A stretch of 64,000 nucleotides of DNA from a virus (Duplodnaviria; Caudoviricetes). The stretch lies in the IMG/VR virus record IMGVR_UViG_3300032004_000002, positions 20,725-84,724 of that record; one strand, written 5' to 3'. Shown piece by piece: positions 3,482 to 9,182 of this stretch; the first letter of the stretch is position 1, and every line of letters starts with the position of its first letter. The notes below the pieces were generated by a model. That model worked only from the letters and a program-made list of their open reading frames with translations. It searched no databases and was not told the origin of the DNA. The position numbers were made by a program, and so were the translations under genes.

Positions 3482-4927
3482 TTAAAGTCTAAATTCATTT
3501 ATCTTTGTGTACACAGGAACTGCGAATGCTGGTATAATCTTTCTTGTGTTGGCGGCTTCAAATGCGTCTGCACAAGCATCAAACATGTCATTGAACCCTA
3601 CCCTTGTATTTGAAGGATCTACACGCTCAAGTTCATCAAAAAAAGTATCATTATTTTGGTAAATTTTGTTTTCAAGATCGTTGGTACAACCTTTAACGAT
3701 ACTCACCATACCAGCTTGACAAGCCGCTCCAAACGGCCCGAATCTCTGAACCTTGCCTCCACGGCCGGCGACAGGCATTGCTTTTGCAGTTACATTATGA
3801 GAGACTAATGTTTTAATAATTTCAGCACAATAAGCAGATCCACCTACACCCGGATCTTTAGGGATATATTGTGTAACTTCAGGACCGTCCCTTAAAGAGG
3901 TTTCTAAAATCAGCTTCATCACATCGCCATGTCTTCCACGATAGCGGATAACGTCCTCGATTGTATATTCACCATCTTCACTGCGTGAAATAAGAACTGA
4001 CGCTGTGAAGTCAGGTCGAAGATTATTTTCCGATACAAGGCTGCAAGCTAAGTCCCATGCTCTAACACGAGTACATTTTTTAATCTGTGGGAAGTCCACA
4101 GTTCGCACCCATGTTCTTTGAAAAAGAGATGAGGATTCTTCTTTGGCATACCATGACCCGTCCAAAAGTCGAGCGCGTTCGACACGAGGAAGAGACTGAA
4201 GTTTGCTAAGGTATGTAGGATCGCGCTCCATAAGAACCGGATTATCTGTGCATTTAGCCGGTACAAATGCGAACGACATAGGGCCACAATTGACACCATA
4301 TTGTTCTATAAGTTCTTCTTTAGTTTTACGCCAGATCATGTCATTGCCCATGCGGACAAACCACATTTTAACACCTGCCATAGACTCTAGAGGAATTCCG
4401 TCTTCATCCAAATAGCCTGCATTTTCTAACCAAACACGAAGAAAGGACTCATAGAGGGGGTTACAGGTCCCAAGCATCTGAGGTTGCATCCCTGCATCTG
4501 TACGCATACGGGAGATAAAATAAACTACCTGAGATTCTTCAAACTGCTGCATTTCATCTAGGAGGAAAGCACTTACTTGCCAACCCTGTAGGTTGTATTT
4601 ATCTTTCTCTTGTTCACATCCTCGGGCTACAATAGTTGCTTTGGATGGGAACACAAACTTAACTTCTTTGGTCTTTGCTACTGCACCAAACTCATGATAC
4701 ATCTCTTGACCTGTTTCCCAGATACCTCCGGGACCAGTAATCTGCGGCATAACTCGCCGCATCATTACTCCACGAAACTTTGGAAGATGTACCCACTTGA
4801 GCATTGCCATAACGCCCAAAAATGATTTTCCTGCTCCGGCTGCTCCACCAAATACTACAATGTCTGCATCATTGTTTAAAAACATTTCTTGTTTGCGGCT
4901 TTTTGGGCCAAGGGTGCTATCAGACAT
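3482..4927 (-). CDS. terL: Terminase large subunit
   Basis: Walker A GGAAGAGKS, Walker B FLLDEMQQF, TCNP motif, RuvC-like AWDLA and C-terminal DMFDA. Confidence 0.95.
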   Translation of the reverse strand: MSDSTLGPKSRKQEMFLNNDADIVVFGGAAGAGKSFLGVMAMLKWVHLPKFRGVMMRRVMPQITGPGGIWETGQEMYHEFGAVAKTKEVKFVFPSKATIVARGCEQEKDKYNLQGWQVSAFLLDEMQQFEESQVVYFISRMRTDAGMQPQMLGTCNPLYESFLRVWLENAGYLDEDGIPLESMAGVKMWFVRMGNDMIWRKTKEELIEQYGVNCGPMSFAFVPAKCTDNPVLMERDPTYLSKLQSLPRVERARLLDGSWYAKEESSSLFQRTWVRTVDFPQIKKCTRVRAWDLACSLVSENNLRPDFTASVLISRSEDGEYTIEDVIRYRGRHGDVMKLILETSLRDGPEVTQYIPKDPGVGGSAYCAEIIKTLVSHNVTAKAMPVAGRGGKVQRFGPFGAACQAGMVSIVKGCTNDLENKIYQNNDTFFDELERVDPSNTRVGFNDMFDACADAFEAANTRKIIPAFAVPVYTKINEFRL

Positions 4928-4939
4928 TGTTTCTCCGGT

Positions 4940-5305
4940 TTAAGATTCTTCCTTTTCAAAAGTAAGGAGATATTCACGAATCATTTGTTGGCAATCTCGA
5001 CCTGTGACGCCTCGTTCTTTAACGATCGGTCTGAGTTCTTGAATGGTCAATGTTTCTAGGTACTCTTTACCATACTGAACTTCAATAGGCCAAACTCGCA
5101 AACCATTTGCCATATCGTCTTCAAGAAACTCTTCAGTCTCTACATAAAGCATGGCTTTATTAGGGAAAGTGTTTTTATTCGGATATTTAGTATCCAATTT
5201 ACCACCCATATTTGCAAATCGTACCACTTGATGTAGAAACATCATACCAGCAGCATCTGTAGCTTTAAGCTCAACATTATACTTATTCATATCTACTCTC
5301 TTCAA
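4940..5305 (-). CDS. Hypothetical protein with C-terminal Rho-N/SAP-like helices
   Basis: 121 aa, GAGAG-type RBS; LETLTIQELRPIVKERGV tail. Confidence 0.6.
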   Translation of the reverse strand: MKRVDMNKYNVELKATDAAGMMFLHQVVRFANMGGKLDTKYPNKNTFPNKAMLYVETEEFLEDDMANGLRVWPIEVQYGKEYLETLTIQELRPIVKERGVTGRDCQQMIREYLLTFEKEES

Positions 5306-5479: not shown

Positions 5480-6727
5480 TTACAAAAGAACTTCTTGCGA
5501 AGACTGGAATGTAAAGGTAGGTGTTCCTGTTACGTTAACAGTTCTCAGGCGTACATATTTGCCTGCCGGAATAATACCAGATAAGTTGGCTGTTCCTAGG
5601 TTTGTAATACTCAACACACCACCGGTTGATTGACCACTTGAACCAACAACTGTTACCCCGGTTGTAAATCCAATTTCGTTAGCATACTCAAGATAAACAC
5701 GTCCCGATGTGCCAGCGATTAATACGGCAGCAACAGTTATATCTACAGAATAACTTACCTGTGCATCTTGTGTAGAACTAATCTGAAATGCTGTGTTAAG
5801 TGTACGTGCCGGATTGGTAAATGTTCTTACCGGAGCACTGTAATTAGGAACATTCAATACACCAGTTGTGCTATTGTATGTTGCGGCCCCCGTTGTTCCC
5901 GTAGTAGTTAAACTTACAGAAGTTCTTGCTCCGGATTGAGTAATATAACTATTGGGGTTAGTAGTTCCGTTATATGGAGTATAGCCCAACGCTGTAGATA
6001 CTTGACTACTACTAATATTTGTCAGATAACCAGCGTCATTTGTAAATGCACTAACAGCAGTTGGAACTGTAGGGATAGCTGGGAATGTAGCCAAACTGCC
6101 ATCACCACGAAGATACTGAGTGGTAGTGCCTACAGGAGTATTAAACTTAGTAGAAAGACCGTTTGTCAATGCTGTTGTTGTAGCATATCCAGCAAGACTA
6201 GTACTCAACGCAGATTGACTCACAGCATCTGTGATCCCATAACCAGATACAGTTGTTGGTGTGGCTGTAATAGTTGACCAAGCTTGTGTATGGGCTGCGG
6301 GAGTAAAGGTGGAAGGTTTGTTGAGCAATACTCCTAAACCACTAACAGCATTCCAATCAGTCTGGACTTGAGCAGGGGGCGAAGGAACCTGAGAAAGGGT
6401 TATGTATCCAGCATCATTTGTAAGTTCGGAAACATTTTCAGGAATTTCAATTCCTAACATTCCCCTGATCATTTGCTCAGAATTAGATGCTATGATTTGT
6501 TGGGCTAGCGGACTGAATGTGAATGGCTTGAAATTTGAAGACGAGTCAGTGCCCATCAGTACAGAAGGTATCTTCATACTGGGGACTACAAATCCACTAC
6601 CTTCCATTTGGTTTGAGCTATTTTTATAGAACAACTCATTTACAGGCATTTCTGCAAGGAAGGTATCCAAACGAGGGTCGGTTACAGAACCACCACCTTT
6701 AACGGGTCTTTGGGGTCCAATAGCCAT
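5480..6727 (-). CDS. Fibre-like virion structural protein
   Basis: T/S/G-rich; fibre motifs QTDWN, NKPSTFTPAAH, QYLRGDG, LGYTP and repeated TNDAGY. Confidence 0.65.
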   Translation of the reverse strand: MAIGPQRPVKGGGSVTDPRLDTFLAEMPVNELFYKNSSNQMEGSGFVVPSMKIPSVLMGTDSSSNFKPFTFSPLAQQIIASNSEQMIRGMLGIEIPENVSELTNDAGYITLSQVPSPPAQVQTDWNAVSGLGVLLNKPSTFTPAAHTQAWSTITATPTTVSGYGITDAVSQSALSTSLAGYATTTALTNGLSTKFNTPVGTTTQYLRGDGSLATFPAIPTVPTAVSAFTNDAGYLTNISSSQVSTALGYTPYNGTTNPNSYITQSGARTSVSLTTTGTTGAATYNSTTGVLNVPNYSAPVRTFTNPARTLNTAFQISSTQDAQVSYSVDITVAAVLIAGTSGRVYLEYANEIGFTTGVTVVGSSGQSTGGVLSITNLGTANLSGIIPAGKYVRLRTVNVTGTPTFTFQSSQEVLL

Positions 6728-7005
6728 TATTGTTCACCATCATTAACCATGATCACTACACGTCCAGCAGACGTGCAACGAATCCAAACACCTGATAAAG
6801 TTCCATCAAGATAAACAGTAGCATTAGAGGCAACCGAATACCCATCTGTTGTGGTCACTGGGGTGCTTGGTCTCACTTGGATTAAAAATGGGGCCGTGAT
6901 CTTATTTTGAATAATAAGAGGTTGACCAACAGTAATACCGGTAGCAGAATAAATCTCTGTCCAAACACCGGCAACAAGTTGTAAATCAGGTAAAGTATTT
7001 GCCAC
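6727..7005 (-). CDS. Small putative virion protein
   Basis: 92 aa beta-rich ORF coupled to the fibre-like gene; AAAGGTG RBS. Confidence 0.55.
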   Translation of the reverse strand: MANTLPDLQLVAGVWTEIYSATGITVGQPLIIQNKITAPFLIQVRPSTPVTTTDGYSVASNATVYLDGTLSGVWIRCTSAGRVVIMVNDGEQ

Positions 7006-7020
7006 TTTAAAACACCTTTT

Positions 7021-7432
7021 ATTATTTTATTTAGAGGTGTCTTGTACTGAGGAATTATAGCCTATAGACAGACAGCATAGGCTTTTGGTTGGGCAGCCTC
7101 TCTGCTTTGAATCAACCGACCATACTTCATAAATGATTGGTTATAGTATAGTTGATTAGTCTCCCACGCTACCTTGGAACTAACCTCTGCCTCTACACAA
7201 TAAGAAGCTCTCACCACTGATCGTCTTTCCGATCTGCCATTTATTTGATCACCTCTTCATTTAAGCATAAACCTAAATGGTTAGAATTCCCCGATGGGTA
7301 TCAGCACAAAGGTGCATAACGGCTCTAACATCACCTACACGTCTTTCCGTAAGTGTCATTTACAACAGACCCCGCCAGAGGTCTTAAGGTGAGAACTAGG
7401 CAGCTCTCGATACCAGACCGCAGTCTGATTCT
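7021..7432 (-). ncRNA. Candidate ~400-nt highly structured RNA
   Basis: Contiguous hairpins and junctions with minus-strand G-U pairs; two CGGAAAGACG loops; no long ORF. Confidence 0.5.
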
Positions 7433-7852
7433 TTATTCACCATCATCTTCGTCATTAGGATCAATATATACTAGTGACAATCGAGGTTTACTTTGTTCTG
7501 CTACTTCTTCTACGGTTGGTTCATCAATTTCAGCTTCGTCCCTTTTCCCTTTAAGACGTGCTTGAAAGTTACCAAGCTCATCTTGAGATGCAGAACGAGT
7601 CATTGTGACAATTGCTGAAAGCAACCACTTAGCACTTGAGAGACTTTCTGAGTTAACTTCCATCTCATTAAGACTGCGATCAACCAAAGCAATTGCTACA
7701 TCTTCACGCTCTTGAAGTTTCTCGGCCAACTTACGAAGCTTGGATTTATTAACACGAACCTTACTATTTCCCTTCAAATTTTGGTTGGACTCTTCAGCAC
7801 CAAACCTATTCTTAGGGCTAGGATTTCTATTTGTAGTTTTCTTAGTAGTCAT
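7433..7852 (-). CDS. Putative terminase small subunit
   Basis: N-terminal RFG...GN basic motif (DUF5681-like), helical core and acidic tail; AGGT RBS; upstream of terL. Confidence 0.4.
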   Translation of the reverse strand: MTTKKTTNRNPSPKNRFGAEESNQNLKGNSKVRVNKSKLRKLAEKLQEREDVAIALVDRSLNEMEVNSESLSSAKWLLSAIVTMTRSASQDELGNFQARLKGKRDEAEIDEPTVEEVAEQSKPRLSLVYIDPNDEDDGE

Positions 7853-7877
7853 GAGATTACCTATTTGTAAATAATAT

Positions 7878-8068
7878 TTCTTAAATACACTCTATTACAG
7901 AATGTCTGTGTTCACTACGTGAGGAATGTATTTAAGAAAGCTCACTTATCACGGGAGAGAACATAATAAGTGAGCGAATAACCAAACAATCCGAAGAGGA
8001 GGAGAGAAAAGATTGTTTGGTTAGGAAGACAAAGCTATGTTATAGAATTTCTACTTAGGCTTTGTCGG
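7878..8068. repeat. Array of four long inverted repeats
   Basis: TTCTTAAATACA/TGTATTTAAGAA, GCTCACTTAT/ATAAGTGAGC, AACCAAACAATC/GATTGTTTGGTT, GACAAAGC/GCTTTGTC. Confidence 0.85.
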
Positions 8069-8074
8069 GAGAAA

Positions 8075-8160
8075 TGGTGGTTGAAGGAAGGAATTGAACC
8101 TCTAGCCTTGGCGCCGGATTTACAGTCCAGTGATAGTAGCCATCTATCTCTACATCAACC
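8075..8160 (-). tRNA. tRNA-Tyr (GUA), atypical
   Basis: Anticodon arm CTGGA-CTGTAAA-TCCGG, TTCAATT T-loop, long variable arm, encoded 3' CCA; acceptor appears 8 bp with a U-U mismatch. Confidence 0.8.
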
Positions 8161-8377
8161 AATAAATAATCCTAGCGTCTGCTAGGCTACGGCGAAGTAC
8201 TACACTACCTCTCGCCCTGTCTTGCTCCGTGATTATCTCCATGATAATTCTGCACCGAAGACTTTATGTTCACGTTAAACACTACAAGCCCTCAAGGGGA
8301 GACTCAATAAACTCCGTCAAGTTTAAGGAGTGGATTACCACTATCTACAACAAGGGGCTCAAAGGCCTATACACGAA

Positions 8378-8460
8378 AACAAGATGAAGGGTTCGAACCT
8401 TCGGATGCCTCAGTATTGGGTTTGCAGAACCCACTGCTTGCATTCTATCTGCGTCAACAA
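8378..8460 (-). pseudogene. Degenerate tRNA (Cys-GCA-derived or Ala-UGC)
   Basis: Perfect T-arm GAAGG-TTCGAAC-CCTTC and anticodon arm TGGGT-TCTGCAA-ACCCA, but truncated D-arm, bulged acceptor and no CCA. Confidence 0.55.
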
Positions 8461-8590
8461 TAGTCCACTCTGTCAATCATGTCTCGGAAATGACGCTGTA
8501 AAGTCGCCGTCATACTTTATTTGATGCTCAGAGATTTCAACTAAGCACATCAAATTCTTCCCAGCAATTTTCACTGTCTGACTCGGTATA

Positions 8591-8618
8591 ATTATAGCAC
8601 CTTTCTAACCATTGTCAA
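8591..8618 (-). promoter_or_regulatory. Strong sigma70 promoter for the tRNA/structured-RNA block
   Basis: TTGACA-16-TATAAT with extended -10 TG. Confidence 0.8.
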
Positions 8619-8650
8619 GCAATTTGTAACAATAAACGTTATTTACTACA

Positions 8651-8824
8651 TTAATCTTCATAATCAGGCATTATTTTCTTAAATCGAGTACCGTAAAAGG
8701 AACAACCTTCATGTTGATACTCAAATCTAAACTTGCCTTCAATGATTTCATCTTCTAGCATTTCGTCACAATTACAGTCTTTATATTCATTGCCACAGGA
8801 AGGGCAATAGTACAATTCGCCCAT
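8651..8824 (-). CDS. 57-aa Cys-rich acidic hypothetical protein (absent from ORF track)
   Basis: GGAG RBS; MGELYYCPSCGNEYKDCNCD...; own promoter at 8857-8886. Confidence 0.65.
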   Translation of the reverse strand: MGELYYCPSCGNEYKDCNCDEMLEDEIIEGKFRFEYQHEGCSFYGTRFKKIMPDYED

Positions 8825-8856
8825 CTGTGGACTCCTTATTAGTTATCAATAAAAGA

Positions 8857-8886
8857 ACTATAAACGACACACAGTGTTTCTGTCAA
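8857..8886 (-). promoter_or_regulatory. sigma70 promoter
   Basis: TTGACA-18-TATAGT. Confidence 0.6.
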
Positions 8887-8897
8887 GCATTATTATT

Positions 8898-9182
8898 TTA
8901 AACTGTATTGTATCCACCAAATACAGAAGGAATACACCAATTATCTTTAATCATTTTCTGTTTCTTTGCATTCAATATCTTTTCTTCTGTCTTTAGTTTC
9001 TTACAGGAAATAGACTTCCACGGTTCGGGGCAACACCCTACACAGACACAAGAGTGCGGATTGAAATTAGGAAGGTATCGTTCTTTACTTCCGCACTCTA
9101 GACAACCACGTTTGATATTGAAATGATTAGTTTTACTTTTTACCGCTTCTGCAATCGTCATTGTTGGTAGTTCATTGTTCAT
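8898..9182 (-). CDS. Zinc-finger protein (CxxC-x16-CxxC)
   Basis: CLECGSKERYLPNFNPHSCVCVGC; ATGA overlap with the upstream polymerase-like gene. Confidence 0.65.
   Translation of the reverse strand: MNNELPTMTIAEAVKSKTNHFNIKRGCLECGSKERYLPNFNPHSCVCVGCCPEPWKSISCKKLKTEEKILNAKKQKMIKDNWCIPSVFGGYNTV

Follow-up and report, generated by a model that had tools for sequence, protein, structure and literature searches.

The sequence analysed here (the window) is a stretch of 64,000 nucleotides corresponding to bases 20725-84724 of a complete 84.7-kb IMG/VR phage record with direct terminal repeats. The nearest cultured relatives of this phage are Pakpunavirus and Nankokuvirus phages, to which its large terminase is approximately 47% identical, and a 453-aa polymerase-like gene is common to the window and vB_PsaM_M1, a Pseudomonas phage classified in the Ounavirinae. 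Judging from these two relationships, the host is probably a soil Pseudomonas or a relative. An identical contig of 87,776 bases from a different rhizosphere study (run X2; 100% over positions 6900-7900) means that the same phage recurs in another sample, and that the second contig adds no variation to the comparisons below. The locus in question is the minus-strand intergenic gap between the gene of a basic protein of 139 amino acids (p139; 7433-7852) and a 92-aa gene (7005-6727) that belongs to PHROG 4770 and has the fibre gene, the large terminase and the portal on its 3' side. On the 5' side of p139, the minus strand carries a promoter (8618-8591), degenerate tRNA-like pieces, a tRNA-Tyr (8160-8075) and a long terminator-like hairpin.

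The predicted promoter at 8591-8618, which the first-pass annotation of this DNA had placed on the same strand as the RNA, is of the sigma-70 type (TTGACA, 16 nt, TG, TATAAT) and matches the consensus at 12 of 12 positions; it could drive a tRNA-p139-RNA transcript. The statement that the RNA lies next to a tRNA locus is partly right. The element at 8075-8160 is a near-canonical tRNA-Tyr(GUA) with an encoded CCA, upstream of the RNA on the same strand, and the RNA family is linked to phage tRNA genes (see below); but ARAGORN with default settings calls no tRNA in the window and finds this element only with a relaxed threshold, and the Rfam tRNA model gives it 28.8 bits (8079-8159, minus strand), 0.2 bits short of the threshold of 29. 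It is 84-87% identical to elements in approximately 200 Pseudomonas phage records, where these counterparts are mostly unannotated or are labelled tRNA-Tyr, Val or Trp. In a degenerate tRNA-Cys-like element (8377-8474, minus strand), called by ARAGORN only at -ps80, the T arm (GAAGG UUCGAAC CCUUC) is good and the anticodon loop carries GCA, but the acceptor stem is poor. Between the tRNA-Tyr-like gene and p139, a terminator-like hairpin of 14 bp is followed by UUUCUU (7940-7975, minus strand) and has a loop, UUCUCUCC, with complementarity both to the ribosome-binding sites of the phage and to the family's purine linker of the GGAGAGA type.

The interval 7006-7432 had been proposed to contain a structured non-coding RNA encoded on the minus strand, and both its folding and the covariation of its relatives bear this out. 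The minus strand folds with a predicted energy of -130.4 kcal/mol, compared to -109.5 +/- 5.5 kcal/mol for shuffled sequences (z = -3.78; 0 of 100 shuffles as good), versus a z of -0.76 for the plus strand, and all ten stems that had been listed are present in place. For the 292 nt of the candidate RNA gene alone (7141-7432, minus strand), z is -3.0. The earlier argument that G-U wobbles favour the minus strand holds across the family: 1317 pair cells from 37 aligned matches include 169 G-U or U-G pairs and only 5 A-C or C-A, so that the opposite strand could not form the hairpins. The first hairpin (H1) is capped in different members by UUCG, UGCG, CUCG, GCAA, GAAA or GUGA, tetraloops of the UNCG or GNRA type, which are stable RNA features. 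The RNA is not coding, since its close relatives differ by indels of 1, 2 and 4 nt, and the short frames that start from a conserved AUG vary between members in length and phase and share no conserved peptide.

Relatives were first gathered by way of the two flanking proteins, and the gap between these ranges from 200 to 500 nt among them. Three motifs conserved in the 5' part, combined into a DNA pattern, yielded 13 contigs from IMG/VR plus 2 more from metagenomes, and a second pattern, with the GCUUGG variant of H1, retrieved about ten more members. A covariance model (R1) was built from a MAFFT alignment of eight members with a hand-drawn structure. R1 recovers all true members, including the divergent L002 and L040, which have no H1, and also detects the RNA at loci obtained through p139 alone; it rejects the chance matches to the patterns (L029, L031, L033, L035 and 15 of 26 loci from the second pattern). 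With R1, the RNA is found in approximately 35 related phage contigs of 81-93 kb from soil and rhizosphere, and a divergent member is found in one cultured phage, vB_PsaM_M1. In the alignment of 37 matches, standard pairs occupy 95.3% of the 1317 cells, a proportion that falls to 32-42% if the partners are shifted by 1-3 columns. Double-sided changes occur in 36 of the 43 pairs, four or five pair types are seen at many positions, and none of 500 shuffles attains the observed values. These covariation counts were taken from model-fitted alignments and are therefore somewhat inflated, but they agree with the result of RNAalifold on the unfitted MAFFT alignment of eight members, in which five of the six hairpins are predicted and 20 of 35 pairs have compensatory changes. 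Approximately half of the members came from the pattern that requires the three conserved motifs, so the invariance of those motifs is partly circular; nonetheless, the loci anchored on p139 carry the same motifs. A search of the whole window against Rfam gave no match at the gathering threshold, and relaxing the cutoff to E <=10 over 6800-8800 gave only noise inside the interval. A blastn search of the RNA against 50,697 phage records returned only a 26-nt match to H4, in vB_PsaM_M1.

The canonical element is 165-175 nt long and consists of six consecutive hairpins (H1-H6), the stems of which covary freely, joined and capped by conserved linkers and loops. Its order is H1-YUGGUAUC, H2 (loop GCCUAG), CCC, H3 (C-UGGC-G), UAAAUG and H4 (loop GGAAAGAC), followed by GUGGAGAR, H5, AGAG, H6 (with a bulged G and the apical loop AGGnnAGnGUG) and the tail CAAYUAUU. 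The RNA has no enclosing helix, and a scan for additional covarying column pairs detected no tertiary contact, only phylogenetic noise. A pairing of the H4-loop AGAC or AAGC with the 3' strand of H1 was considered and rejected, as it covaries in three members and fails in two. The core is made of two domains, H1-H2-H3 and H4-H5-H6, connected by a variable joint that holds unrelated expansions in L004, L019, L026/27, L048, L065/L081 and vB_PsaM_M1; that of L048 amounts to approximately 270 nt. These varied expansions, together with the absence of H4 from L039, indicate two domains linked through a tolerant hinge. None of the hairpins is indispensable on its own: besides L039, several members have H4 missing or replaced, and H1 is missing from L002 and L040. 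L042 has a truncated member (2249-2340) with H1 and H2 only, after which comes a GC-rich, terminator-like hairpin with a U tract.

The copy in the window is an expanded member of 292 nt (7141-7432, minus strand), identified by its R1 hits, its folding and the covariation of the family, and it begins 1-3 nt past the TAA stop codon of the 139-aa gene. It is longer than the canonical element because approximately 120 nt, including a second H4, have been added between H3 and H4, and R1 accordingly matches it in two halves, split by the insertion (7310-7433, 68.3 bits, E = 1e-20; 7142-7291, 56.4 bits, E = 1e-16). In its first domain, H1 (7412-7429) has 7 bp and a UGCG tetraloop; across the family, double-sided changes affect five of the eight pairs of this hairpin, 97% of cells are paired, and its 3' strand plus UAUC (YUGGUAUC) is conserved. 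H2 (7391-7408) displays the conserved GCCUAG(U) loop; all five of its pairs change on both sides, and the lower proportion of paired cells (82%) reflects variation in register. H3 (7367-7384; 7 bp, conserved C-UGGC-G loop) changes on both sides at five of seven pairs, with as many as five pair types per position and 98% of cells paired. The UAAAUG linker and the first copy of H4 (7332-7363), with the loop GGAAAGAC, match model positions 74-98, and vB_PsaM_M1 has a near-identical hairpin. A lineage-specific insertion of 87 nt (7245-7331) is next, composed of a predicted three-way junction (7280-7329), a predicted CAUUUAGG hairpin (7258-7279) and a linker. This insertion is absent from all other members, its sole other source being the 100% identical contig from the second rhizosphere metagenome; being confined to this phage, the junction and the CAUUUAGG hairpin are predicted from one sequence only and have no comparative support. 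A second UAAAUG and H4 (GAUCGGAAAGACGAUC; 7219-7244), placed by the alignments and by the R1 hit at 7142-7291, adjoins the 3' domain as H4 does in canonical members, and the expansion of L048 is likewise situated between two copies of H4. Both GGAAAGAC hairpins of the window (7332-7355 and 7219-7234) match covarying helices of the family. The second domain continues with the purine linker AGUGGUGAGAG (7208-7218; family consensus GUGGAGAR), recognized as conserved unpaired columns, and with H5 (7190-7207; CUUCU/AGAGG), a hairpin that the first-pass list had missed, in which all seven model pairs change on both sides and 96% of cells pair. H6 (7154-7185) is bipartite, with a single bulged G and the apical loop AGGnnAGnGUG, and eight of its nine pairs change on both sides, with 97% of cells paired. 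The conserved 3' tail (7141-7153; consensus CAAYUAUU...) corresponds to the last segment ahead of the tRNA 5' end in L015/L025, L065 and vB_PsaM_M1. A long-range pairing of 10 bp in the minimum-energy fold of the window is not conserved. Thus, of the stems listed earlier, those of H1-H3, both H4 copies and H6 covary in the family, those of the insertion are without comparative counterparts, and those of the 3' module, discussed below, belong to a part with only two covarying pairs.

The gene of p139 is syntenic with the RNA in nearly all members, lying upstream on the same strand at a distance of 3 nt to 1.6 kb. In all complete metagenomic genomes examined, the RNA is downstream of p139, and in seven loci it starts 3-8 nt past the p139 stop codon. 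In L047, no RNA was detected within 1.5 kb downstream of p139; approximately 0.8 kb upstream of p139, this locus has a gene (453-683) of the Acb2/Tad1-hairpin type (anti-CBASS/Thoeris sponge). The protein has a conserved basic N-terminus and, close to an acidic C-terminus, the invariant motif PRLSLV; AlphaFold models it as a helical hairpin, itself confident, at a mean pLDDT of 68. Searches of Pfam, PHROGs, NCBIfam and PDB profiles and of structures with Foldseek gave no match, tblastn against cultured phages gave none, and neither family nor fold searches recognized an RNA-binding fold; a protein atlas gave a weak lead to DUF5681 (10% of one cluster). In vB_PsaM_M1 the RNA is present and p139 is not detectable, and p139 is therefore not an obligate partner of the RNA. 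The invariant residues 123-129 of the acidic tail, PRLSLV(Y/F), are reminiscent of bacterial sliding-clamp-binding motifs (QL[SD]LF) and of the clamp-binding tails of the late-transcription proteins of T4. Between p139 and the RNA, the closest relatives of the window have a strongly hydrophobic ORF of 54-58 aa (L039, 1918-2082; L042, approximately 1930-2110; L044, 1936-2052), which is absent from the window.

A canonical tRNA is found within the fetched flanks of 19 of 34 member loci, always on the strand of the RNA, and in four contexts RNA and tRNA are in end-to-end contact. In L022, the start of the RNA is the 3' end of a tRNA-Thr; the end of the RNA is the exact 5' end of a tRNA-Met in L015/L025, of a tRNA-Asn in L065/L081 and of a tRNA-Pro in vB_PsaM_M1. 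From these contacts with different tRNAs, we infer that the RNA is co-transcribed with tRNAs and that tRNA-processing enzymes probably release it, its ends being placed by genome context. A check for RNA sequencing runs that contain positions 6000-9000 listed none. The RNA would be part of a transcript shared with the tRNA and p139, possibly initiated at the consensus promoter (8591-8618), and would be cut out of it as a 3'UTR-derived RNA; where a tRNA follows, RNase P would make the 3' end. A string of independent hairpins that has neither a closing helix nor tertiary covariation, with invariant loops and linkers rich in purines, is more in keeping with a platform for protein binding than with a ribozyme or a riboswitch, and our guess is that the RNA may act in trans by showing its conserved loops to a protein, perhaps p139 or else a host factor for RNA binding or translation. 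We give about even credence to the reading that 7141-7432 (minus strand) encodes a small RNA, stable and structured, of an uncatalogued phage family, derived from a tRNA-p139 transcript and perhaps acting in trans. A more specific version, in which p139 or a host factor binds the invariant loops of the RNA after its release from the tRNA transcript, making it the RNA component of a phage ribonucleoprotein that would act late on host translation, tRNA processing or tRNA-directed defence, is speculative and rather doubtful.

The main rival that remains is a cis-acting role, which we consider a serious alternative although on balance an improbable one. One possibility is that the element forms a structured 3'UTR, shielding the transcript of p139 and the tRNA against 3' exonucleases and directing its processing; another is a put-like antiterminator that allows transcription into the late structural genes (the 92-aa gene, fibre, terminase and portal). 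Such a role would account for the close spacing of the RNA behind the p139 stop codon in the seven loci mentioned above, for its position, which is always upstream of structural and packaging genes on the same strand, and for the fact that neither a promoter nor a terminator of its own was detected beside it. A protective 3' structure, however, needs no invariant loops and linkers across six hairpins, and the flanks of the element vary: tRNAs, the small membrane ORF or a 222-aa gene may stand between p139 and the RNA, with a gap of up to 1.6 kb, and the upstream gene of vB_PsaM_M1 is on the opposite strand.

The first-pass annotation had taken the entire interval as one RNA of approximately 400 nt, a new class comparable to GOLLD and ROOL. 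The whole of 7006-7432 does fold well (z of -3.8, as given above), no terminator was found between its two parts, and these lie side by side in L004, L045 and L048 as in the window; but the GCAG/CUGC and AGCCUAU/AUAGGCU stems of the earlier list belong to a module at 7006-7140 that is absent from most members. In L005 and L006, this module of approximately 135 nt is directly 5' of the 92-aa gene (3866-4003 and 2415-2552, respectively) and is cut off from the RNA by a tRNA plus 3.4 kb of fibre genes. That the module stays with the 92-aa gene despite a 3.4-kb insertion indicates two independent parts. Seven sequences of the module are highly conserved, yet only 2 of 20 predicted pairs covary. 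It contains two hairpins, a TATAAT box (7054-7059) immediately preceded by a hairpin with the loop GUUGUCUGUCU, and a hairpin that sequesters the ribosome-binding site (AAGGUG) by pairing with it. We read 7006-7140 as a conserved module in its own right, outside the RNA, that forms the leader or promoter region of the 92-aa gene and may serve as a late promoter or in translational control. GOLLD and ROOL are RNAs of several hundred nucleotides with intricate multi-junction folds, which are often phage-borne and often near tRNA genes, and the likeness to the new RNA ends there: the latter is a string of hairpins of approximately 170 nt, expanded in the window to 292 nt, and matches neither Rfam model. 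A single large RNA across the interval is thus quite improbable.

Still less probable is a function at the level of DNA, either as a pac site recognized by p139 acting as a small terminase or as a replication origin or promoter array. The location of p139 among packaging genes, its basic N-terminus and helical core, as in many small terminases, and the weak DUF5681 lead speak for it. A DNA site would leave unexplained the strand asymmetry of the wobble pairs (169 to 5), by which the other strand could not form the hairpins and a role such as a pac site is unlikely, as well as the UNCG and GNRA loops, which are features of RNA, the coincidence of the RNA ends with tRNA ends, and the presence of the element in vB_PsaM_M1, which lacks p139.

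The least credible alternative is that the element is a reduced tRNA-related RNA of a known type: a small version of RNase P RNA, a tmRNA-like RNA or, as had been suggested earlier, a set of tRNA-sized decoys. It is suggested by the tRNA neighbourhood and by the H4 loop GGAAAGAC, which recalls the CR-I sequence of RNase P RNA, GGAAAGUC, but contradicted by the lack of any Rfam RNase P, tmRNA or tRNA match in 7006-7432 at E <=10 and of any tRNA or tmRNA call by ARAGORN there, by the status of GGAAAGAC as a plain loop on a covarying stem with no conserved P4-like pseudoknot partner, and by the members in which H4 is missing or replaced and the lack of a conserved short reading frame. Specifically, the bacterial RNase P RNA models (RF00010 and RF00011, reduced forms also considered) gave no match and GGAAAGAC has no conserved long-range partner; ARAGORN and RF00005 detect no cloverleaf within 7006-7432, the only hit being outside it at 8075-8160; and a tmRNA-like tag RNA has neither an ARAGORN or Rfam match nor a conserved tag frame. 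A sponge for CsrA/RsmA of the CsrB/RsmZ type is likewise argued against, the 4 GGA motifs in 292 nt being approximately the chance expectation.

The new RNA is smaller and more modular than first thought, and it belongs to a known class, the stable RNAs embedded in phage tRNA regions. Its closest analogues, RNAs C and D of T4 and sRNA1 of PAK_P3, are not homologous to it. RNAs C and D of T4 (rnaC, 139 nt, and rnaD, 119 nt, also termed species 1 and 2 RNA), which have no known function, are like the new RNA in being phage RNAs of 100-200 nt encoded on the strand of the tRNAs. By the T4 record, rnaD ends 1 nt from a tRNA-Arg, in parallel with the end contacts described above. T4 differs from the phage of the window in phage group, host and the lack of the six-hairpin architecture, and R1 scores no more than 4.2 bits over the T4 tRNA cluster. 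PAK_P3, a Pakpunavirus, is from the distantly related group with which the window shares a terminase of approximately 47% identity. Its sRNA1 (ncRNA1; approximately 210 nt), processed from a 3'UTR, and sRNA2 (ncRNA2; approximately 120 nt) have no transcription start site of their own and are processed and abundant late in infection (PMC10914365, PMC4933390). They occupy the same genomic neighbourhood of small genes and a tRNA-Tyr; R1 finds nothing in either PAK_P3 or JG004, and no p139 homologue was found in the regions fetched from these two phages, and the likeness is thus one of kind and context, not of family. Unnamed structured RNA candidates of 29-151 nt have been predicted from IMG/VR (PMC10690425), the same source of data, by the same kind of evidence, namely covariation in phage intergenic regions. 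By their length, none of these candidates can be the whole RNA, and fragments of it might be among them. The family is absent from Rfam 15 and was not found in the literature searched, the candidates of PMC10690425 having been compared by length alone.

Phage tRNA clusters have long been known for abundant small RNAs such as those of T4 and PAK_P3, to which the present analysis adds a well-defined family with a covariance model, approximately 35 members, strong covariation, clear domains and a recurrent neighbour in p139. Its divergent member in vB_PsaM_M1, a cultured phage that infects Pseudomonas sp. ZM01, brings expression, processing and loss of function within reach of bench experiments, the recurrent contacts of its ends with those of several tRNAs offer a concrete, checkable model of how such RNAs are made, and the variable joint between the domains marks where the RNA tolerates insertions. 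If the RNA were indeed the subunit of a ribonucleoprotein, this would be the first function for the stable RNAs of phage tRNA clusters, which have been unexplained since RNAs C and D of T4. Further unannotated RNAs may be present in JG004 (L037), in which the Pakpunavirus tRNA cluster contains unannotated gaps of 200-320 nt (3682-4001, 4255-4469, 4550-4828 and 4983-5292), one of which holds a tRNA-Tyr-like element.
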